Part shown: piece by piece, positions 700-10,610 of the stretch
Layout of the letters: every line of letters begins with the position of its first letter
How positions within the stretch are numbered: position 1 is the first letter of the stretch
NCBI GenBank assembly: GCA_043809315.1
Contig: JAZDDX010000015.1
Span: 21,481-85,480, forward strand
Length of the DNA stretch: 64,000 nucleotides
Direction of reading: 5' to 3'
Source: Pseudomonadota bacterium
GTDB taxonomy: Bacteria; Bdellovibrionota_G; JALEGL01; DATDPG01
Made by a program: the position numbers and the translations under genes
Notes under the pieces: model-generated
What the model saw: the letters and a program-made list of their open reading frames with translations, nothing else
The model's database searches: none
What the model was told of the DNA's origin: nothing

Positions 700-999
700 T
701 TAGGCGGCTCTCGAGAAACGCACCTTCGTGCGGTAACCGAGCGATCCCAGAATCCGCAGGAGCAGGTCGGTCGAAACCTGGTACGTGTTGCGGTTGAGAA
801 TGGCCGTAATGCGGGTCCGGGAGGTCCCGGAGATCTTGGCGACTTGGGCATGGGTCAAATGGCGAGCTCTCACCGCCTCAATGATCTTGTCGTTGAGGTC
901 GCAATGGACCTCGATTTCGACCCCATCAGCCGGAGAAAGTCCGAGAGCCGCAGCCAGTTCCGCCGCAGTCCGCGTCACGATCGGTTTAATCTTCTTCAC
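700..999 (-). CDS. XRE-family HTH antitoxin (HigA-like)
   Basis: 99 aa with HTH LTHAQVAKISGTSRTRITAILN; RBS GAGGGAG; lies directly after a RelE-like gene. Confidence 0.8.
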   Translation of the reverse strand: MKKIKPIVTRTAAELAAALGLSPADGVEIEVHCDLNDKIIEAVRARHLTHAQVAKISGTSRTRITAILNRNTYQVSTDLLLRILGSLGYRTKVRFSRAA

Positions 1000-1246
1000 G
1001 TGTCATCTCCCTCAATCTTCTTTGAGCAAGCTCCAATTCGCGATCGGGCGTTTTCTCCTGTTTCTTTGAGAAAACATGAAGCACGAGAATTCCGTAGCGC
1101 CATCCACTCAAAATGAAGGCCCGGAAACTGCCATCCCGACCTCGAATCCGTAACTCTTCAACGCCTGGCCCGACGATCGGCATCGTGCGGGAAAGAGGCA
1201 TTCCAAGCCTGCTTCCTCGCTGGAGATTCCGAATTGCTTTTCCCAT
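986..1246 (-). pseudogene. RelE/HigB (Gp49-like) toxin, N-terminally truncated
   Basis: GKAIRNLQRG..MPLSRTMPIVGPGVEELRIRGRDGSFR..ILVLHVFSKKQEKTP matches the family core; about 20 N-terminal residues appear absent and promoter DNA abuts the coding core. Confidence 0.65.
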
Positions 1247-1271
1247 GTCCCGAATCCGGGACAAGTGTCAA
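1246..1271 (-). promoter_or_regulatory. -35 box plus palindromic operator of the toxin-antitoxin pair
   Basis: TTGACA (minus, 1266-1271) followed by perfect inverted repeat TGTCCCG-N4-CGGGACA (1246-1263). Confidence 0.55.
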
Positions 1272-1390
1272 GGGGGATTGTTTTTTCAAACATCGTTCCA
1301 GGAAGAATCGCAAGACGGATGCCGACGATGGAAAACAGAAACCGATTCTCGGTCCTCGGGGTCCGATTTCTAGCTAACATGATGAAACCC

Positions 1391-1419
1391 TTGACACAAA
1401 GTGGCCAAACTCCTACGAA
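1391..1419 (+). promoter_or_regulatory. Putative sigma70 promoter of the BMC operon
   Basis: TTGACA (1391-1396), 17-nt spacer, TACGAA (1414-1419); predicted start site coincides with GTG 1426. Confidence 0.5.
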
Positions 1420-1425
1420 GGCTTG

Positions 1426-2043
1426 GTGATCTCCCTGCGGACGTTCGTTTTCATCGACTCCCTGCAACCCCAGCTCGCCGCGTATATCGGATCGACTGCC
1501 AAAGGTTTTTTGCCCCTTGCCGAGATGGCGGCGCTCTATATCGAAATCGCACCGGGAATCGCGATCAACCGGATCACCGACATCGCCCTCAAAGCGACCA
1601 AGGTCAAACCGGCCGTTCAGGTGGTCGAGCGGGCCTTCGGCCTTCTCGAGGTCCACGAGGCCGACAAGGGAGAGGTCCGTTCCGCCGGCGCCGCGATCCT
1701 TCGTCATCTGGAGCTGACCGAAGAGGACCGGATGGCCCCGAAGATCGTCTCGAACCAAATCATCCGGGGGGTCGACCCGCACCAGTCGCAGCTGGTCAAC
1801 CGGAGCCGCTCCGGATCGATGTTGCTGCCCGGACAATCTTTGTTCATTCTGGAGACGGAGCCGGCCGGATACATCTCATTCGCTGCGAACGAAGCGGAGA
1901 AAGCGGCGAACGTCAACCTGATCGACGTTCGTCCGTACGGCGCGTTCGGTCGTTTGTATTTGGGGGGTACCGAATCGGAGATCGACTCGGCGGCGCAGGC
2001 CGCCGTCAACGCTTTGGGAACTTTGCGGGGAAAGACCGCGTAA
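1426..2043 (+). CDS. BMC shell protein, permuted tandem-domain trimer (BMC-T; CcmP/CsoS1D-like)
   Basis: [67 protein letters not shown] motifs; start TTG 1423 or GTG 1426. Confidence 0.93.
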
Positions 2044-2062
2044 CGAAAGGGGAGGCAAGAAG

Positions 2063-2377
2063 ATGTCAGATGCATTGGGATTGATCGAAACCCGCGGATT
2101 CGTGGGGATGGTGGAAGCAGCGGACGCGATGGTGAAAGCGGCCCGGGTGGAGTTGGTCGGGTACGAGAAGATCGGCGGCGGGTACGTGACCTGCATCGTC
2201 CGCGGCGATGTCGCGGCGGTGAAGGCCGCCACGGAAGCCGGCGCGAAGAGTGCCGAGCGCGTGGGAGAGCTGGTCTCCGTGCACGTGATTCCGAGACCGC
2301 ATCCGAACGTCGACACCGCGCTCCCTCTCGGACGGACGACCGCGGCTGCGCAGGCGAAAGCCGCCGGCGCGAAGTAG
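2063..2377 (+). CDS. BMC shell hexamer protein (BMC-H; EutM/PduA/CcmK family)
   Basis: [55 protein letters not shown]. Confidence 0.97.
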
Positions 2378-2386
2378 CGAGGAGCC

Positions 2387-2674
2387 ATGGTCCTCGGACA
2401 GGTGGTGGGGACGGTCGTCTCCACCCGGAAGGACGAGAAGCTTCAAGGGCTCCGCTTCCTGGTGGTCAAGAATCTCGATCTGGACGGGAAACCGGCCGGT
2501 GCGTATGTCGTCGCGGTCGACTCGATCGGAGCCGACCGCGGGGAGGTCGTTCTGTATGCGACCGGAAGCTCCGCGCGGCAGACCGCGGTGTCCAAAGACC
2601 GCCCGGTCGACGCCGTGATCATGGCGATCGTAGATACCGTCGAGGTCATGGGGCAGACGAGGTACCAGAAGTAA
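2387..2674 (+). CDS. BMC vertex pentamer protein (BMC-P; EutN/CcmL family) copy 1
   Basis: [49 protein letters not shown]. Confidence 0.95.
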
Positions 2675-2677
2675 CCC

Positions 2678-4084
2678 ATGCGGGTTTCGGACACGCATCT
2701 CGAATCGATCGTTCGGCAGGTGGTCGACCGCCTCTCGCGCGAGCGTGACGAGCGTCCCGCGGGAGGGAAGGCCCATCCCCAGGTCGGCGTGTTCGACGAC
2801 ATGAATGCGGCGGCTGCCGCCGCCGAACCGGCCCAGCGTGCGCTTTTGTCTCTCTCCCTGGCTCACCGGAAACGGATGATCGCAGCGATCCGCGCGCTTC
2901 TGCACCGGTTCGTGAACGAACTGGCGGAGTCTGCGGTAACGGAGACCGGCCTCGGCCGGGTCGACGACAAGATCCTCAAAAACCGGCTCGTGATCGACAA
3001 GACTCCGGGCCCCGAGATCCTGGAACCGTGGACCTTCACGGGAGATGACGGCCTGACGCTTCACGAGCGGAGCCCGATCGGAGTTTTGGCCGCAATCACC
3101 CCCTGCACCAACCCTTCGGAAACCGTGATCTGCAATGCAATCGGGATGGTTTCGGCCGGGAACGCCGTCATCTTCAACCCCCACCCGCTCGCCAAGCGGG
3201 TTTCAGCGCGGACCGTCGAACTCTTGAACGAGGCGATCATCTCGACCGGCGGCCCGGCGAATCTGGTTTGCTGCCTGCGCGAGCCGACGATCGAGAGCGC
3301 CCAGGCGTTGATGCGTCACCCGAAGGTTCGGATGGTAGTCGTCACAGGAGGCCCGGCGGTTGTGGCCGAGGCGATGAAGAGCGGGAAGAAGTGCATCGCG
3401 GCCGGCCCCGGGAATCCGCCGGTCGTGGTCGACGAGAGCGCCGACCTCGACGTCGCCGGCAAGGGAATCGTTCTGGGATCGTCGCTCGACAACAACATCG
3501 TCTGCATCGCGGAGAAAGAGATCATCGCGGTCGACTCGATCGCCGACGACCTGAAGAAATCGATCACACGACATGGCGGGTTCGAGTTGACGGAGCACAA
3601 CCGTTCGAAGCTCGAGAGGCTCGTCCTGGACGGTGATCATCCGCACAAAGATTGGATCGGAAAAAACGCGACGAAAATGTTGGCGGCTCTCGGAATTTCA
3701 GCCGATCCGAGCGTTCGTGTCCTTTTCTGCGAGACGCCCCGCGAGCACCCGTTTGTCCAACTCGAGATGCTGATGCCGGTGATCCCTATGGTCCGGGTCA
3801 AGACGGTCCACGAGGGGATCGTCTTCGCGAAGGATGTGGAGCACGGGTTCCGCCATACGGCGGTCATGTACTCCCGCAACATCGACAACCTTCACGAGAT
3901 GGCGAAGATGTCGGACGTCTCGATCTTCGTGAAGAACGCCCCGAGCTATGCGGGCTTAGGCATGGGAGGGGAAGGGTACACGTCGTTCACGATCGCAGGG
4001 CCCACGGGAGAGGGGCTGACCACGGCGATCAACTTTTCGCGCGAGCGGCGATGCACCCTCGCCGGGCGATTCCGGATCGTCTGA
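2678..4084 (+). CDS. CoA-acylating aldehyde dehydrogenase (EutE/PduP family) with N-terminal encapsulation peptide
   Basis: TPCTNP, VTGGPAVV, AGPGNPPVVVDE, DNNIVCIAEKE (catalytic Cys), HGFRHTA, FTIAGPTGEGLT; N-terminus LESIVRQVVDRLS. Confidence 0.95.
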   Translation: MRVSDTHLESIVRQVVDRLSRERDERPAGGKAHPQVGVFDDMNAAAAAAEPAQRALLSLSLAHRKRMIAAIRALLHRFVNELAESAVTETGLGRVDDKILKNRLVIDKTPGPEILEPWTFTGDDGLTLHERSPIGVLAAITPCTNPSETVICNAIGMVSAGNAVIFNPHPLAKRVSARTVELLNEAIISTGGPANLVCCLREPTIESAQALMRHPKVRMVVVTGGPAVVAEAMKSGKKCIAAGPGNPPVVVDESADLDVAGKGIVLGSSLDNNIVCIAEKEIIAVDSIADDLKKSITRHGGFELTEHNRSKLERLVLDGDHPHKDWIGKNATKMLAALGISADPSVRVLFCETPREHPFVQLEMLMPVIPMVRVKTVHEGIVFAKDVEHGFRHTAVMYSRNIDNLHEMAKMSDVSIFVKNAPSYAGLGMGGEGYTSFTIAGPTGEGLTTAINFSRERRCTLAGRFRIV

Positions 4085-4350
4085 TGGAGCTCGCCCGAGT
4101 CATCGGAACCGTCACTGCCACGATGAAGGCGGAGGAGCTTCGGGGTGTGAAGCTTCTGCTCCTCCAGCCGATCGATCACACGGAAAAAGAAAAAGGGAAG
4201 CCGATTGTCGCGGTCGACAAAGGCCAGGCGGGGATCGGGGACAAGGTCTATTACGTGCTCGGACGGGAGGCGGCTCTGACGCTCGACAAGACGTTTGTCG
4301 CGGTCGATGCCGGAGTGGTCGGGATCGTCGACGAGGTGGATGTCCCGTGA
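4084..4350 (+). CDS. BMC-P (EutN/CcmL family) copy 2
   Basis: ATG overlaps the AldDH stop (TGATG); MELARVIGTVTATMK..VAVDKGQAGIGD..VDAGVVGIVD. Confidence 0.92.
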   Translation: MELARVIGTVTATMKAEELRGVKLLLLQPIDHTEKEKGKPIVAVDKGQAGIGDKVYYVLGREAALTLDKTFVAVDAGVVGIVDEVDVP

Positions 4351-4619
4351 TCATCGCCCGAGTCATCGGGACCGCTGTGGCCACCGTCAAACACCCCTCC
4401 TACAACGGACGGAAAGTGATGATCGTTCAGCCGCTGGCCCCGGAAGGGGAGGATCAGGGACAGTCCTTTCTCGCGGTTGATGCGGTTCAGTCGGGTCCCG
4501 GGGATCGCGTCCTCGTGGCGCGCGAGGGGAACGCCGCCCGCCAGATCCTCGAAGCGGGGGAAGCCCCGATCCACGCCGTCATTCTGGGCATCATCGACGA
4601 AGTGAATCTGCCAAACTGA
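4347..4619 (+). CDS. BMC-P (EutN/CcmL family) copy 3
   Basis: GTGA overlap; IARVIGTAVATVKH..LAVDAVQSGPGD..EGNAARQ..IHAVILGIID. Confidence 0.92.
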   Translation: MIIARVIGTAVATVKHPSYNGRKVMIVQPLAPEGEDQGQSFLAVDAVQSGPGDRVLVAREGNAARQILEAGEAPIHAVILGIIDEVNLPN

Positions 4620-4626
4620 GATCAAT

Positions 4627-5379
4627 ATGGCCTCCCCCGAACGAATCCGGTTTACGCTAGGTGGTTCGCTCACGCCGGTGGTGCGCGTTCTTCTCTGGGT
4701 CAACGGCCTGGTCTGGCTGTTTCTGATGCTCGTCAAAGGCCGGGTTTACGCACCGGTCGGGGAGAGTTACGCCGACATTCTGACCGAGCTTCTGGGGCTT
4801 TCCCCGAAAGCGGTATTCCACGACTGGGCGCTCTGGCAACCGATCACCTACCTCTTCGTCCATCGGGAATTTTGGCATCTGGTCCTCAACATGCTCGGCC
4901 TCTGGTGGTTCGGCGTAGACCTCGAGGCGACTTGGGGGCCGAAAACCTTCCTGAGGTACTACTTTTTCACCGGCATCGGTGCCGGGATCGTCTCCGCCCT
5001 GTTCGGGATCCCGACGATCGGGGCTTCGGGCGCAATCTACGGGGTTCTCCTCGGGTACGGGATGCTCTTCCCGAACCGCGTCCTCTACCTCTATTTCGTC
5101 GTTCCGGTGAAGGCGAAGTACTGTGTCCTCTTGTTCGGTGTCGTCGAGCTCCTGGCCGTCGTGCAGGGCGGGAGCGGTGGAGTGAACAACCTGGCGCATG
5201 TGAGCGGCCTCGTTTTTGGATTGATCTGGTTCATCTTTGCCCGCCGCCAGCTCCACCTGGGAGAGTTATGGCGCCAGCTGCGGAAACGGCGGATGCGCCG
5301 TCGTCTCCAGTTGATCCGGAAGGATCAAGGGGAGGACGCCGAATCCCCCGAACCGTACGACCATCCCACCATTCATTGA
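4627..5379 (+). CDS. Rhomboid family intramembrane serine protease
   Basis: WQPITYLFVH..HLVLNM, IGASGAIYG (catalytic Ser), AHVSG (catalytic His); several TM segments. Confidence 0.92.
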   Translation: MASPERIRFTLGGSLTPVVRVLLWVNGLVWLFLMLVKGRVYAPVGESYADILTELLGLSPKAVFHDWALWQPITYLFVHREFWHLVLNMLGLWWFGVDLEATWGPKTFLRYYFFTGIGAGIVSALFGIPTIGASGAIYGVLLGYGMLFPNRVLYLYFVVPVKAKYCVLLFGVVELLAVVQGGSGGVNNLAHVSGLVFGLIWFIFARRQLHLGELWRQLRKRRMRRRLQLIRKDQGEDAESPEPYDHPTIH

Positions 5380-5416
5380 TTGAATCGCAGCGGGGGCTTG
5401 CGTAGATTCCCCCCGG

Positions 5417-8041
5417 ATGGAGCCGGACCGGGTCGATACGCCGCTGATGCGGCAGTACTGGGAAATCAAGAAGGAGCATCGCGATGCGATCCTTCTCTTC
5501 CGCCTCGGGGACTTCTACGAAATGTTTTTCGACGACGCCGAGGTCGCCTCCCGGATTCTCGACATCGCCCTCACGTCCCGTGACAAGAACTCCGAGAATC
5601 CGGTCCCCCTCTGCGGCGTCCCCCATCACGCCGTCTCCGGTTACATCTCGAAACTTCTCGAGAGCGGTCACAAGGTGGCGATCTGCGATCAGATGGAGGA
5701 TCCGAAGTTCGCCAAAGGGATCGTCAAGCGGGAAGTGGTCCGGGTCATCACGCCGGGGTTGCGGACCGATCTCGAGGGGCTGTCGGCCACCGAACGGAAT
5801 GCGTTGGTTTCATTGTATGCCACGGCCACAGGAGTTGCGCTCGGCTGGGTCGATGTCGCGAGCGGTGACTTCCGGGTCACGACCTTTCCGGACGTCTTCT
5901 CGGCCGAAAACGAGATCGATCGTCTCAACCCCTCCGAGATCCTTCTTCCGGAAGGGGATGGAGGAAAGCCTTTCGAAAGTTGGGTCTCCATCTTTTCCAT
6001 TTCGTATCCGTCGGTTCATTTCGAGCGCATCCCGAATTGGGTCTATGACCGAGCGGAGAAAAAGCTCAGCGAGCGGTTCGCGGTGGCGACGCTGGACGGG
6101 TTCGGAATCGAAGACATCCCGCTGACGGCGCCCCCTCTCGCCGCCCTTCTTCATTACGTCGAAGAGAGGAACCACACGCCGCTCCCGCATTTGACCCCGC
6201 CCAAGCCGTACTCGGTCGACCGGTTCGTCCACCTCGACCCATCCACGCGGGATCACCTCGAGATCTTCCGCTCCCTCGGACGCCCCGGCGACGAGCGGAC
6301 GTTGTTCGGGATCTTGAACGAGACGCGGACGTCGATGGGGACGCGGAAACTCAAAGACTGGCTCCATTTTCCGCTGCGGGATGTCCCGGCGATCCGGAAA
6401 CGGCTGGAGGTGGTGGCGGAACTTTCAGAAAACGCGCAGGAACGGGAAGCGATCCGGACGCAGCTTTCCGGTGTCTACGACCTGGAGCGTTTGATCGGCA
6501 GAATCGCGAGCGCCCGGGCGAACCCGAGGGACCTGGTTTCTTTGGTCGGGACACTCCGGGCGGTCGAGATGATCCGGCCGCTCGTTTCCCAGAGCCAAAC
6601 CGAAAACCTTCACCTGCTCCTCCCCGTTCTCGATCCTCATTCCGATCTGGTCTCCTGGCTTGAGAAAGGGTTGAGCGATCAGCCGCCGATCACGCTTTCG
6701 GAAGGGGGGTCGATCCGGGACGGTTTCGACCCCCGCCTCGACGACCTTCGGTACATCAAGAGGAAAGGGAAACAGTGGATCGCGGAACTCGAAGCGAAGG
6801 AACGGCAGAGGACCGGCATCGGCTCGCTTCGGGTCGGATACAACCGTGTCTTCGGGTATTACATCGAGGCCACCAACGCGAACCTTGCCAAGGTTCCGGC
6901 CGACTATCAGCGGAAACAGACGCTGACGAACGGGGAGCGGTTCGTCACGCCGGAGCTCAAAGAGGAAGAGGCGAAGATCCTCGGAGCCGAGGAGAAGATC
7001 GCGGCGCTCGAGCAGGAGATCTTCGAGGGACTCCGACAGAAGGTGGTCGAGTCGATGCGTTCGATCCAACGGTTGGCCGACGCTTTGGCCGAAATCGACG
7101 TCTACGCCTCCTTATCCCGCGCCGCCGTCCGGAATCGATATGTCCGGCCGGAGGTCGACGAGAGCGACCGGATCGAGATCCGAGCCGGGCGCCATCCGGT
7201 GGTGGAGCGTTTCATTGGGGAGCCCCCGTTCGTTCCGAACGACACCCTTCTCGATTGCGACGACCGCCAGCTGATCATCCTGACCGGGCCGAACATGGCG
7301 GGGAAATCGACGATCATGCGGCAGGTGGCGTTAATCGTTTTACTGGCGCAGATCGGGTCGTTCGTCCCGGCCGAAGAGGCCCGGATCGGCGTGGTCGATC
7401 GGATCTTCACCCGGGTTGGCGCTTCCGACGATCTCTCCCGCGGGCGTTCGACCTTCATGGTGGAGATGAGCGAGACGGCGAACATCCTCCGGAACGCGAC
7501 GAAGCGATCGCTCATCCTTCTGGATGAGATCGGCCGGGGGACGAGCACGTTCGACGGCCTGTCGATCGCCTGGGCTGTGGCAGAGGAAATCCACGACCGG
7601 ATCGGGGCGAAGACGATCTTTGCCACGCATTATCACGAGCTGACCGACCTTGCTCGGACGAAGGCGCGGGTTCGGAACATGAACGTCACGGTGCGCGAGT
7701 GGGGGGAGCAGATCCTCTTCCTGCGCACGCTTGCGGAAGGGGCGGTAAACCGGAGCTACGGGATCGCCGTGGCGAAGCTGGCCGGGGTGTTCCCCTCCGT
7801 GACGGATCGCGCGCGGGAGATCCTGGCGAACCTGGAACGGAGCGAGCTCGACGCGACCGGTTCCCCCGTTCTGGCCCGACGCGAATCGGCCGTGCCGGCA
7901 CAAACGGCTCAACTCGAACTGTTCCGGCGAATGGCGGACGATCTGTGGGAGGAACTCAAGCGGATCGATCCCGACAAGATGACACCGAAAGAGGCGCACG
8001 ACCTCCTTTTCGCGTGGCGGCAGCGCTATCACAAGGCCTGA
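5417..8041 (+). CDS. mutS: DNA mismatch repair protein MutS
   Basis: TPLMRQY, FRLGDFYEMF, TGPNMAGKST, STFMVEM, DEIGRGTST, FATHYHEL. Confidence 0.98.
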   Translation: MEPDRVDTPLMRQYWEIKKEHRDAILLFRLGDFYEMFFDDAEVASRILDIALTSRDKNSENPVPLCGVPHHAVSGYISKLLESGHKVAICDQMEDPKFAKGIVKREVVRVITPGLRTDLEGLSATERNALVSLYATATGVALGWVDVASGDFRVTTFPDVFSAENEIDRLNPSEILLPEGDGGKPFESWVSIFSISYPSVHFERIPNWVYDRAEKKLSERFAVATLDGFGIEDIPLTAPPLAALLHYVEERNHTPLPHLTPPKPYSVDRFVHLDPSTRDHLEIFRSLGRPGDERTLFGILNETRTSMGTRKLKDWLHFPLRDVPAIRKRLEVVAELSENAQEREAIRTQLSGVYDLERLIGRIASARANPRDLVSLVGTLRAVEMIRPLVSQSQTENLHLLLPVLDPHSDLVSWLEKGLSDQPPITLSEGGSIRDGFDPRLDDLRYIKRKGKQWIAELEAKERQRTGIGSLRVGYNRVFGYYIEATNANLAKVPADYQRKQTLTNGERFVTPELKEEEAKILGAEEKIAALEQEIFEGLRQKVVESMRSIQRLADALAEIDVYASLSRAAVRNRYVRPEVDESDRIEIRAGRHPVVERFIGEPPFVPNDTLLDCDDRQLIILTGPNMAGKSTIMRQVALIVLLAQIGSFVPAEEARIGVVDRIFTRVGASDDLSRGRSTFMVEMSETANILRNATKRSLILLDEIGRGTSTFDGLSIAWAVAEEIHDRIGAKTIFATHYHELTDLARTKARVRNMNVTVREWGEQILFLRTLAEGAVNRSYGIAVAKLAGVFPSVTDRAREILANLERSELDATGSPVLARRESAVPAQTAQLELFRRMADDLWEELKRIDPDKMTPKEAHDLLFAWRQRYHKA

Positions 8042-8066
8042 ACCGATGCTATCATGAGCCGTTCCG

Positions 8067-9773
8067 ATGACGAGAAGGGCGTGGATTGCGATTCCGTTGC
8101 TGCTCGGGATCTCGGTTCCGTTTGCAGAGGCCGCGAACTCCTCGGCTCTCTTTGACCGGGGGAGAGCCCGGTATCTCTCCGCCAAGACGATTCAGTCTCC
8201 GAGAATGAAGCGGACGGCCTACCTCCGCGCCGCCGGTGAGTTGAAGGAGTTCCTCGACCGTTATCCGAACAACCCTTCCGCGGCTACAGCCCTGTTCGAT
8301 CTCGGTTCGATCTACCGGGACCTTGCCGTGGCGTGGATGGACCGGGATGACGCGGGGCGGGCGCTCCATTACTACCGCAACCTGGTGCGGAAATCGCCGG
8401 GCGACCCGCGGGCCGACGATGCCGTCTACGAGGAGGGCTTGATCTGCGAAAAGGTCTTCCAAGACCTGAAGTGCCGGGACGAAGCGTTCGATCGGATCCG
8501 GGCTTTGTACCCGGCCGGGGACGTCGTGCGGCGCCTGCCGGCAAAAACCGTCGCCGGTTCCTCCGCCGCGCCGGCTTCCCGCGTGATTCCGTCCGCACCT
8601 TCCCCCACCGTTCGTTCGAGAGCGGAGATCGATTCGGTCACCTTCGTCGCCGAGGAGCCCAGCTACCTGCTGACGGTCACCCTCGACAGCTCTCCAACAA
8701 TCTCTTCCGGGTTCATTCCGGCCATTCCCGAACAGAACCTCCCGACCCGGTATTACATCGATATCGAGAATGCACATCTCCCGACAACGCTTAAGCCTCC
8801 GGGGATTCCGGAGAATGCCCCCGTAACGTCGGTTCGCCTGGGACAGAACACGATGGAGACGGTTCGGGTCGTTCTCGACCTTTCGGCCTCTTTAACCCCG
8901 GGGGATGTCACGGCGGAAACCGAAGGGAGTTCGGTGAAACTTACGTTCCGGCCCGCCGCTCTTGTGCAGGGGACGATGATGCCGACGATCGCTCCCACGC
9001 CGGTTCCGGCTCCCGAGAAGGTCGTCGCCCCGATCGTCCCGCGCCGGATGAAGATCGTGGTCGATCCGGGGCATGGCGGGGAGGATACCGGCGCCCGAGG
9101 GCGAAGAGGGACGCTCGAGAAGGATGTCGCGCTGGCGATCGGCAAGAAGCTCGACGCGCTGCTTTCGAAGTCACCGCATTACGAAGTTTTCATGACCCGG
9201 ACGGAGGATCGGGCGCTGGCCCTCGGGGACCGGACGAACTTCGCGAACCGGGTCGCCGGGGATCTGTTCGTGTCGATTCACGCGAACGCGGCGCCGCGCC
9301 GTGCCGCCCGAGGGGTTTCGACCTACCTGTTGGACAATGCGGATGATGAAGAATCGCTCCGCGTCGCCCGGCAGGAGAACGGCGAGCTGGCCGTGCCGCA
9401 AACCGGAACTTCGGGGAAGTCGGAGGAGTACTACCTCGAGGTGATGAAAGCCTCGATGATTAAGAACTTCCACACCACGCAGTCGGTCGATCTCGCGCGG
9501 AACGTTCAGAGCGAACTGGTCTCCTCGCTCAAGAAGGGACGTTGGGAGACGGAAGATCTCGGGGTTCGGAGAGCCGGGTTCTACGTGTTAACCGGGGCCA
9601 AGATGCCGGCGGTTTTGGTCGAGACCTCGTTTATTTCAAATCCCACGGAGGAACAGCATCTTCGAGATCCGCGCTACCAGGAGAGGGTTGCCCAGGCGAT
9701 TTTCCGGGGGATCGAGCGGTTCTTTACCGCCCTCGCCCGCGAACTGAGCCACGCCCGCTTGTATCGACCGTAG
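8067..9773 (+). CDS. N-acetylmuramoyl-L-alanine amidase (Amidase_3) with TPR-like and AMIN regions
   Basis: Signal peptide; IVVDPGHGGED, EKDVAL, FVSIHANA, PAVLVETSFISN. Confidence 0.92.
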   Translation: MTRRAWIAIPLLLGISVPFAEAANSSALFDRGRARYLSAKTIQSPRMKRTAYLRAAGELKEFLDRYPNNPSAATALFDLGSIYRDLAVAWMDRDDAGRALHYYRNLVRKSPGDPRADDAVYEEGLICEKVFQDLKCRDEAFDRIRALYPAGDVVRRLPAKTVAGSSAAPASRVIPSAPSPTVRSRAEIDSVTFVAEEPSYLLTVTLDSSPTISSGFIPAIPEQNLPTRYYIDIENAHLPTTLKPPGIPENAPVTSVRLGQNTMETVRVVLDLSASLTPGDVTAETEGSSVKLTFRPAALVQGTMMPTIAPTPVPAPEKVVAPIVPRRMKIVVDPGHGGEDTGARGRRGTLEKDVALAIGKKLDALLSKSPHYEVFMTRTEDRALALGDRTNFANRVAGDLFVSIHANAAPRRAARGVSTYLLDNADDEESLRVARQENGELAVPQTGTSGKSEEYYLEVMKASMIKNFHTTQSVDLARNVQSELVSSLKKGRWETEDLGVRRAGFYVLTGAKMPAVLVETSFISNPTEEQHLRDPRYQERVAQAIFRGIERFFTALARELSHARLYRP

Positions 9774-9779
9774 ACGGTC

Positions 9780-10610
9780 TTAGCCGCAATCGCCCGAGCT
9801 GAACAACCCCGGGGCGCCGCAGTCCCCTTCCCAGGGGGCGACTTGCGTCAACCCGTTCTGGTCGACCGCGCCGCTGATCTTGACGTGGTAGCGGGCCAAC
9901 GGATCGAACAGATCCGGATCGTCACACCCGATCGTAACACCCACATAATCGAACTCCGTGGTGAAGAAGAACCAGGGTTCGCCAAAGAATCTGCCGTTGG
10001 TAAGCCAGTCGATCCCGAGCGTGGTCTCGGTGACGTTCACCTTCGGTAAACCCCCGATCTCGTCCAGATCTTCGGAATACTCGATGACGAACGTGAGACA
10101 GCCGTCCGAGGTATCGATCCAAACCGATCTCACGGCGGGAGCCACGCCGGGAGTTACCCGGGACCCGACTCCATCGGTCGAGAAAAGGAGAGTGAAGCTC
10201 TGAACCATCGTTTTTCCGCTGACCGAACGGACGCTCGACCCGAGAGTCAATCGGTAACTCGCGCCGACGGAAAGAAGGTTGTGCGGTATGAAGTCGACTT
10301 CCAGGTTCGCGTTGGTCATCGTGACGTCGAAATCCGTGGTCACGTCGGTGGCCGCGCCCCCCACGATCCGGGTGATTTTGTATGCGTTCGCGAGGCTGGC
10401 CGGGTCGACCGGTTCCGTGAACCCAACCCGGATCATCGTATTCGTTTCCACACCGTAGTCCCCATTCCGTGGTTCTGAATCGGGAACCCCGAATCCACCC
10501 AGCGTATTGTAGAAGTCGCCGAGGGCTCGGGAGTTGGTTTTACTGCACCCGGCCGCCAGAACGATCAACGCCGCGAGGGTTGTTACGGTACGGAATCTTT
10601 TAGTCCACAT
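9780..10610 (-). CDS. Lipoprotein with SbsA/Big_5-type Ig-like domain
   Basis: LAAG-C lipobox; P.NG..GV..N..IRVGFTEPVDPASL...F.P...L..GASYRLTL..F.F.T pattern; RBS GAGGAG 6 nt before ATG 10610. Confidence 0.75.
   Translation of the reverse strand: MWTKRFRTVTTLAALIVLAAGCSKTNSRALGDFYNTLGGFGVPDSEPRNGDYGVETNTMIRVGFTEPVDPASLANAYKITRIVGGAATDVTTDFDVTMTNANLEVDFIPHNLLSVGASYRLTLGSSVRSVSGKTMVQSFTLLFSTDGVGSRVTPGVAPAVRSVWIDTSDGCLTFVIEYSEDLDEIGGLPKVNVTETTLGIDWLTNGRFFGEPWFFFTTEFDYVGVTIGCDDPDLFDPLARYHVKISGAVDQNGLTQVAPWEGDCGAPGLFSSGDCG

Follow-up and report, generated by a model that had tools for sequence, protein, structure and literature searches.

A compact HO-type microcompartment cassette in an uncultured Bdellovibrionota_G lineage and two unlinked aldolases as its candidate cargo

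A six-gene cassette of the HO type

The window analysed here is a stretch of 64,000 nt from a genome placed in Bdellovibrionota_G (G000:C15:21481-85480, G000 being this genome), and window positions are used below for the genes near its left end, which form a compact bacterial microcompartment (BMC) operon. Open reading frames were listed and translated, and the window proteins were compared with Pfam, PDB and NCBIfam profiles. Six genes lie between positions 1423 and 4619, all on the + strand, encoding five shell proteins and a single enzyme, a CoA-acylating aldehyde dehydrogenase (AldDH):

1423-2043, + strand: BMC-T(dp), a tandem-BMC-domain, double-stacking trimer tile of the CcmP/CsoS1D/HO-5816 kind, 206 aa
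2063-2377, + strand: BMC-H, hexamer tile (PF00936, E 8e-32)
2387-2674, + strand: BMC-P1, pentamer (vertex), first of a triplet (PF03319, E 1.4e-30)
2678-4084, + strand: CoA-acylating AldDH of the EutE/PduP subfamily, 468 aa (PF00171, E 1e-35)
4084-4350, + strand: BMC-P2, second vertex paralogue (PF03319, E 2.9e-25)
4347-4619, + strand: BMC-P3, third vertex paralogue (PF03319, E 3.5e-27)

This gene order had been proposed in a first-pass annotation of the stretch, and all six genes were recovered with Pfam scores far beyond chance. The tight coupling that it described is also evident: the intergenic gaps between the first four genes are, in order, 19, 9 and 3 nt, the AldDH stop overlaps the BMC-P2 start (TGATG) and the BMC-P2 stop overlaps the BMC-P3 start (GTGA). 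The interval that it gave, 1391-4619, is exact at its end, but it begins 32 nt before the first possible start codon, BMC-T(dp) starting at TTG 1423 or GTG 1426.

Judged by its sequence, the operon belongs to the already catalogued HO type and is no new kind of system. The type was named by Sutter et al. (2021, Nat Commun 12:3809; PMC8217296), the consulted sections of which report it in 40 other genomes and place it, with its BMC-P triplet and BMC-T(dp), among the metabolosomes without an obvious signature enzyme. The novelty implied by the first-pass annotation thus falls away, because type, triplet and missing signature enzyme are all described there. The resemblance to the BMC of Haliangium ochraceum noted in the annotation holds, HO-5816 and HO-5815 being the best solved-structure matches. 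BMC-T(dp) matches HO-5816 over its whole length (residues 1-203, E 3.2e-84), followed in PDB by CcmP (4e-70) and CsoS1D (7e-57); its PF00936 match lies in the second domain (E 6e-7), and it scores 290 bits on the NCBIfam CcmP model, under the cut-off of 340. For BMC-H, HO-5815 is the best natural PDB match (E 1.5e-46).

The AldDH scores 644.6 bits on NCBIfam NF011927 (cut-off 403) and keeps the CIAEKE block (pattern across related loci). It aligns with PDB 5jfl (E 1.6e-138), whose table entry reads 'aldehyde dehydrogenase' and which we take to be a PduP. Since this alignment begins at residue 28, the first ca. 27 residues of the AldDH are extra; the N-terminus reads as an amphipathic helix (approximately residues 5-22, nt 2690-2743) with a Pro/Gly-rich linker after it. 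This is the layout of an encapsulation peptide, and we designate it a putative targeting helix. A predicted Haliangium targeting peptide was reportedly used by Lassila et al. in 2014.

A scan with the AldDH retrieved 80 loci at 50-66 % identity, carrying the labels Deltaproteobacteria GWA2_38_16, Bacteriovoracaceae, Bdellovibrionota, Oligoflexia, Myxococcota, Kofleriaceae, Haliangiales and Riflebacteria, with the following arrangements:

T(dp)-H-P1-AldDH only: 40 loci
T(dp)-H-P1-AldDH plus downstream P2/P3: 11 loci
AldDH plus P2/P3, cut at the 5′ side or without T(dp): 3 loci
H-P1-AldDH ... RpiB (SPU-like): 16 loci
other or truncated: 10 loci

The block T(dp)-H-P1-AldDH is collinear in 51 of the 80, Haliangium-, Haliangiales- and Kofleriaceae-labelled loci included, so that the order likened to Haliangium in the first-pass annotation is common to Haliangiales, Kofleriaceae and Bdellovibrionota labels. 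The nearest AldDHs (58-66 % identity) are in HO-like loci. BMC-H orthologues show 76-87 % identity in the 51 collinear loci, except for L026 (69 %), and 62-73 % in the others that have a BMC-H, while the BMC-P1 orthologue directly upstream of the AldDH shows 51-65 % in most loci and 47-48 % in L065 and L079. Orthologues of BMC-P2 (38-60 %) always precede those of BMC-P3 (38-61 %), in related loci and in satellites. The three P2/P3-bearing loci that were read (L013, L015 and L018) have a tandem-BMC gene of 183-208 aa between the AldDH and P2. Related loci of the Bdellovibrionota type have no further enzyme gene adjoining the shell genes. Two HO-type loci, L020 and L026, are on contigs from metagenome-assembled genomes labelled 'candidate division WWE3' and 'Stenomitos sp.'; these labels seem unlikely for such loci, and the contigs may therefore be mis-binned.

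The cassette shares with the HO type the acylating AldDH (pfam00171) as sole enzyme of the main locus, with no aldehyde-generating signature enzyme there, the BMC-T(dp) of the CcmP/CsoS1D kind, the single BMC-H, the BMC-P triplet and the order T(dp)-H-P-AldDH. Two extra BMC-P genes in the main locus are a feature of type II HO in particular, and a remote pfam01791 enzyme with an N-terminus resembling an encapsulation peptide and a satellite EutL-type BMC-T, both described below, are likenesses outside the main locus. In contrast to the HO type, no single-layer BMC-T(s), corresponding to what we take to be locus tag Hoch_5812, was found here, and AldDH and P2 overlap instead; the class II aldolase does not lie with P2-P3 and falls in another clade; the EutL-type tile is coupled with panD and not accompanied by EutABC; and the host is an uncultured lineage with a small genome of 2.4 Mb, not a myxobacterium. 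By sequence, then, this is a compact HO sub-variant, devoid of BMC-T(s) and with all putative cargo but the AldDH unlinked. According to the consulted sections of PMC8217296, type I HO has satellites of two BMC-P genes and an aldolase, which in type II belong to the main locus; in some HO genomes there are EUT-module satellites, with EutL-type tiles among their genes; some HO genomes also have remote pfam01791 genes whose N-termini resemble encapsulation peptides, and nucleic-acid catabolism was proposed; and the HO AldDH is placed closest to those of SPU5 and SPU7. A literature search on microcompartments and Bdellovibrionota found, at the level of its listing, nothing on this system.

A satellite shell gene and two aldolases with terminal helices

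The G000 assembly comprises 2.42 Mb in 44 contigs and is an estimated 96 % complete. The genome search for further BMC genes and tagged enzymes proposed in the first-pass annotation yielded three genes on other contigs:

G000:C30:2315-3226 (L010:1234-2145): deoxyribose-phosphate aldolase (DERA), 303 aa (TIGR00126)
G000:C11:118944-119672: class II (FucA-like, metal-dependent) aldolase, 242 aa, the sole PF00596 match in the genome
contig C33, L008:19036-19725: satellite EutL-type BMC-T (PDB EutL, E 4.5e-50)

Its suggestion of cargo encoded elsewhere thus gains support from two aldehyde-releasing aldolases with helices resembling targeting peptides, and these two unlinked enzymes, as read from sequence, are what is new in this genome.

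Genome-wide, PF00936 and PF03319 match only the cassette genes and the EutL-type BMC-T, and the three PF03319 genes of the cassette are the only ones. A tblastn search of G000 with the BMC-T(s) of L013 and L015 returned only the BMC-H and EutL-type genes, weakly, and PF00936 gave no further match that could be a BMC-T(s). The 'full shell' of the first-pass annotation is therefore only partly right: no BMC-T(s) was found, and a sixth shell gene lies on another contig. This EutL-type gene scores 222.5 bits on NCBIfam PRK15405 (cut-off 198); its start overlaps the panD stop, and it ends ca. 200 bp from the end of C33. The pair (L008:18671-19725) is translationally coupled and recurs in all three cassette-bearing genomes of the family. 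Gene panD codes for aspartate decarboxylase, which opens the route to the beta-alanine moiety of CoA; that CoA supply might be tied to an organelle consuming CoA is no more than speculation.

As the first-pass annotation stated, the window holds no signature enzyme, alcohol dehydrogenase, PduL or acetate kinase, and this largely extends to the whole assembly. EutB (PF06751; E. coli control matched), PduL (PF06130), iron-containing alcohol dehydrogenase (Fe-ADH), Pta and acetate kinase (controls matched in each case) had no match in G000, and neither G000 nor five relatives had a match to the glycyl-radical enzyme family PF02901 (controls matched). The cassette accordingly differs from EUT systems, of which only the EutL-type tile is present and EutBC is not matched, from GRM systems, by lacking a glycyl-radical enzyme match, and from PDU systems, by lacking a PduL match. 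Diol dehydratase PF02286 had zero matches in G000 and also in the control genomes, and is thus uninformative. The genome has a single RpiB, on contig C29 between fabF and glyA, which passes the rpiB equivalog and has a Cys in its CGTG block that we equate, by motif reading without alignment, with E. coli Cys66; being of the housekeeping type, it was rejected as SPU-type cargo. PF01791 has two matches in the genome, the DERA and a second on C39, which was set aside because by eye it resembles class I fructose-bisphosphate aldolase and lacks an extension.

There is exactly one DERA in the genome and one class II aldolase. The DERA passes the TIGR00126 (deoC) equivalog (263.6 bits, cut-off 117.3) over residues 86-294 only, and its N-terminal extension of 85 residues has an amphipathic helix at its start and includes three cysteines. 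An AlphaFold2 model, whose input was an alignment of 19 sequences, has a helix at residues 4-28, pLDDT below 50 at 28-43 and 45-81, and a confident TIM-barrel core. Residues L11, I15, V19 and L23 of the helix are invariant in the 19 aligned homologues; D172, K205, K234 and the terminal Tyr of the core, presumably the catalytic residues, are invariant or nearly so. The disordered linker of 50 residues between helix and core has conserved cysteines (residues ~40-55), spaced C-x6-C-x5-C in the homologues of this family and C-x2-C-x2-C, with another Cys before it, in Kofleriaceae-labelled DERAs, for which a metal or redox role is possible; in G029 and G030 the linker region contains a further domain of ~250 residues. 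Gene deoC is the first in a nucleoside run, followed by udp-like, punA, cdd, upp-like and hpt; the udp (uridine-phosphorylase)-like gene is below its cut-off and the purine-nucleoside phosphorylase above.

The occurrence of the DERA extension was compared across 40 relatives and G000, among which G001-G004 belong to the same family. Counted from the first ATG to the core, it has at least 81 residues in all six genomes with a BMC-P triplet and at most 62 in the 21 without BMC-P. A 13-residue motif upstream of the core, matched by 55 of 2165 long frames as background, occurs in 6/6 of the former versus 1/21 of the latter; the match in G030, within the extra domain, is possibly due to chance. In the family, the match to the G000 DERA starts at residue 5-6 in G001 and G003 and only at residue 71-76 in G002 and G004, whose DERAs still have shorter helical N-termini. 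Each of 24 genomes with HO-like loci has one DERA homologue, and in 23 of them the motif is found in the open frame upstream of the core. Moreover, the DERA gene is directly upstream of T(dp) in L026 and beside BMC-P genes in G029 and G030.

The class II aldolase is ca. 30 residues longer than its relatives, and the extra C-terminal part ends in an amphipathic helix; its AlphaFold2 model has a low-confidence linker (213-220) and a helix (223-241). The columns of H97, H99, H160 and E78, which from recall of the FucA site we take to be the metal ligands, are invariant. The gene lies between a lysine-biosynthesis operon and a divergently transcribed gene of the fsa/talC type. Among the family genomes, the BMC-positive G000, G001 and G003 have the C-terminal tail and BMC-negative G002 lacks it; G004 has no aldolase match. 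All 24 genomes with HO-like loci contain class II aldolases, and 12 of the 30 aldolase loci fetched, from other HO-locus genomes, are P2-P3-aldolase modules, most of whose aldolases end in a helix of the same style.

The helices of the AldDH, the DERA and the class II aldolase have, by sequence reading, hydrophobic residues at common positions 1, 4, 8 and 12. Two targeting-helix profiles were discarded as a test for cargo, one being circular and the other too weak. The circular one, built from seven sequences and run against 21,413 frames, had no other match scoring over 11.4 bits, a weak hint that the genome encodes no fourth tagged protein.

Presence and absence of the cassette within the family

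BMC-P was found in 8 of the 41 genomes, including two of the four other family members and none of the 10 in other families of the order. The two positive relatives, G001 and G003, represent two other genera of the family and contain T(dp)-H-P1-AldDH-P2-P3-rhomboid at 70-87 % identity, MutS identity within the family being 62-69 %. In the closed, BMC-negative genome G004 the order is geneX-rhomboid-mutS-amiC with nothing between (L188, G004:C1:1530000-1544000, ~8100-9600), geneX, the neighbour of BMC-T in G001 and G003, abutting the rhomboid gene. This adjacency indicates that the 3.2-kb cassette is a discrete unit of presence and absence and that rhomboid and mutS are mere context. The cassette thus appears as a clean insertion/deletion polymorphism at a fixed site, without polarity as to gain or loss. 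The rhomboid gene was considered as a part of the system, since it adjoins the cassette in 3/3 genomes, and was rejected because geneX-rhomboid-mutS also occurs without the cassette in G004.

The EutL-type tile lies next to panD in G000, G001 and G003 and was not found in G002 or G004, so that shell genes, EutL-type gene and aldolase tail go together in three family genomes and were not found in two. In G003 the panD/EutL-type pair is followed by a frame similar to a TtcA-like PP-loop ATPase and by genes similar to cytochrome oxidase, and these genes, read by eye without a family search, include no EUT-like enzyme.

In comparisons with the same labelled genomes, identity is 50-66 % for the AldDH, up to 87 % for BMC-H and 40-49 % for MutS, the last in its best full-length matches. 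This gap could reflect either very strong constraint on the shell genes or horizontal movement of the cassette. The MutS range is the same irrespective of phylum, with higher values over fragments only, and is thus uninformative as to lineage.

Proposed function and its alternatives

On balance, we consider it probable that the cassette provides the shell and AldDH of an HO-type metabolosome whose aldehyde comes from the unlinked, tagged aldolases, in the manner of an SPU-like acetaldehyde trap; this rests on sequence comparison and structural models. We infer that the enzymes generating the aldehyde have their genes outside the cassette and reach the shell by way of encapsulation peptides with a common hydrophobic spacing, and the missing chemistry is most likely supplied by the tagged DERA together with the class II aldolase. 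Deoxyribose-5-phosphate, from scavenged (deoxy)nucleosides or DNA, would enter the shell, the gated BMC-T(dp) and the satellite EutL-type BMC-T being possible ways in. There the DERA would split it into glyceraldehyde-3-phosphate and acetaldehyde, and the class II aldolase would feed a second sugar-phosphate-derived aldehyde (lactaldehyde, glycolaldehyde or acetaldehyde) to the same AldDH. The genome searches turned up neither a phosphotransacylase nor an alcohol dehydrogenase, so that NAD+/NADH and CoA/acetyl-CoA would have to cross the shell, without internal recycling.

The SPU systems offer the closest parallel for the DERA. In the consulted parts of PMC11585597 (Commun Biol 2024), all SPU-associated DERAs have an N-terminal helix and an extension of ~70 residues that is read as an encapsulation peptide and is lacking in DERAs not associated with BMCs; SPU DERAs are active on deoxyribose-5-phosphate, and SPU ribose-5-phosphate isomerases adjoin the DERA and have Asp in place of the catalytic Cys. 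The present system has in common with SPU a DERA with a long N-terminal helix and linker, an AldDH expected to take acetaldehyde, and the shell types T(dp) and P triplet. It differs in that the DERA is on C30 at the head of a nucleoside operon, RpiB on C29 and the shell genes on C15, and in that the sole RpiB is a housekeeping enzyme with Cys, in contrast to the Asp-bearing isomerases next to the SPU DERA.

Several observations weigh against the proposed role of the tagged aldolases. For the DERA, 14 of the 21 relatives without BMC-P also have 39-62 residues before the core, several of them visibly amphipathic although failing the strict motif, and this motif was defined after the HO set had been seen, so that only the comparison across G005-G040 is independent. 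Despite the deoC/udp-like/punA/cdd operon, a DeoB-type phosphopentomutase (TIGR01696) was not found in G000 or G001-G005, and another mutase or a deoxyribokinase must then supply the DERA substrate. The class II aldolase falls under every NCBIfam equivalog cut-off (best 129 bits versus 250), and in a tree of 34 aldolases with two well-supported clades those of G000, G001, G002 and G003 are outside the clade of the Myxococcota P2-P3-linked enzymes. The targeting-helix profile built from the peptides of four relatives did not recover the AldDH of the window or the aldolase and ranked the DERA second, with E 0.6. Finally, with PduL, Pta, Fe-ADH and acetate kinase not found in G000, cofactor turnover is left without an assigned enzyme.

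The strongest competitor, although rather unlikely, is an organelle of the PVM kind (the fucose/rhamnose BMC of Planctomycetes-Verrucomicrobia, and PVM-like ones), in which the part of true signature enzyme would fall to the class II aldolase with its C-terminal tag and the DERA extension would serve another purpose. The aldolase would cleave a ketose-1-phosphate to dihydroxyacetone phosphate (DHAP) and an aldehyde for the AldDH, be it lactaldehyde, glycolaldehyde or acetaldehyde; as substrates, fuculose-, rhamnulose-, ribulose-, 5-deoxyribulose- and methylthioribulose-1-phosphate come into question. A class II pfam00596 aldolase with an acylating AldDH is indeed the PVM combination, and the PVM aldolase presumably has a C-terminal encapsulation peptide. 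In this family the aldolase tail tracks the shell genes (three genomes with both, one with neither and a fifth without an aldolase match), the enzyme is modelled with a linker and a terminal helix, and an MtnA-like isomerase is encoded in the genome. Furthermore, P2-P3-aldolase is a conserved satellite of Myxococcota HO loci (12 of 30 loci), in agreement with type I HO in the consulted sections of PMC8217296. On the other hand, shell make-up and AldDH relatives are HO-like, the aldolase is under the FucA/RhaD equivalog cut-offs and has no fucose or rhamnose genes nearby nor any sugar-catabolic neighbours, and the MtnA-like gene is unlinked and occurs in all six genomes irrespective of BMC. The DERA also has a helix of the same kind, its strict motif is distributed 6/6 versus 1/21, and it is encoded inside the shell loci of L026, G029 and G030. 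The two readings are compatible rather than exclusive. A DHAP-shunt role for the class II aldolase is neither supported nor excluded, the MtnA-like gene being independent of BMC status.

The stand-alone aldehyde sink put forward in the first-pass annotation, with the AldDH as sole cargo and the shell detoxifying aldehydes that diffuse in from the cytoplasm, is improbable. It would account for the single enzyme of the operon, for the related Bdellovibrionota-type loci, likewise without another enzyme gene beside the shell genes, and for the failure of the PduL, Fe-ADH and Pta searches to find a cofactor-recycling enzyme. Against it stand the two aldehyde-producing aldolases on other contigs, whose terminal helices have the hydrophobic spacing of the AldDH helix and co-vary with the shell genes; besides, on general grounds, a sink for freely diffusing aldehyde would draw no benefit from a diffusion barrier.

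We find even less to recommend a decaying or shell-only remnant without a present metabolic role. The patchy distribution (3/5 family genomes, 0/10 in other families of the order) and the BMC-T(s) of relatives that was not found here would fit decay, but the six frames are intact and translationally coupled, the cassette keeps 70-87 % identity across three genera versus 62-69 % for MutS, and unlinked tagged enzymes and satellite tile are retained along with it. Scarcely credible, and rejected, is an ethanolamine add-on marked by the EutL-type tile, with EutABC just past the end of C33: the tile does lie ~200 bp from the contig end and EUT-module satellites occur in some HO genomes (consulted sections of PMC8217296), but of the satellite with a known signature enzyme raised by the first-pass annotation only the EutL-type gene was found, with no EutB in the 96 %-complete assembly, and in G003 unrelated genes without an EUT-like enzyme (by eye) follow the panD/EutL-type pair.

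The dual-aldolase scheme proposed for this genome could be extended, more tentatively and as something we would not yet bet on, to HO organelles in general, including the Haliangium shell. These would trap acetaldehyde that two aldolases release from deoxy-sugar phosphates, themselves products of nucleic-acid scavenging, with one helix code (positions 1, 4, 8 and 12) on AldDH, DERA and class II aldolase and no internal recycling of NAD+ and CoA, the cofactors passing through gated BMC-T(dp) pores; in the present lineage a 3.2-kb cassette would come and go as one piece, and the tags on unlinked cargo with it. Work on the structure and engineering of BMCs uses the Haliangium shell as its main model, and the native function and cargo signals of this shell are still treated as open in the consulted parts of PMC8217296 and PMC11924220, the latter, from 2025, calling the native encapsulation targets and peptides of HO BMCs not known. 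The present genome amounts to an unusually clean natural experiment in a 2.4-Mb background, with one cassette, one satellite tile, one DERA and one class II aldolase, and with sister genomes that lack cassette, tile and aldolase tail together. This opens the deoxyribose/acetaldehyde hypothesis, along with three candidate targeting peptides, to direct testing, and the pattern of presence and absence in the family gives a clean handle on HO-type function and cargo code. The apparent lack of every known cofactor-recycling enzyme sharpens the question of NAD+ and CoA turnover in such shells.

As to the flanks of the cassette, a scan for promoter and terminator consensus sequences over positions 900-10000 gave counts no higher than in shuffled sequence, with no signal ahead of the first gene. 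By Pfam, the downstream genes code for a rhomboid protease (4627-5379), MutS (5417-8041) and an AMIN-domain amidase (amiC, 8067-9773). On the opposite strand, directly before the cassette (700-1264), there is a pair resembling a toxin-antitoxin module:

986-1264, - strand: Gp49/HigB-like gene (PF05973, E 3e-15)
700-999, - strand: helix-turn-helix gene (HTH_37/HTH_3)

About 2 kb including this pair are inserted here, whereas in G001 and G003 the conserved upstream gene is within ~100 bp of BMC-T.

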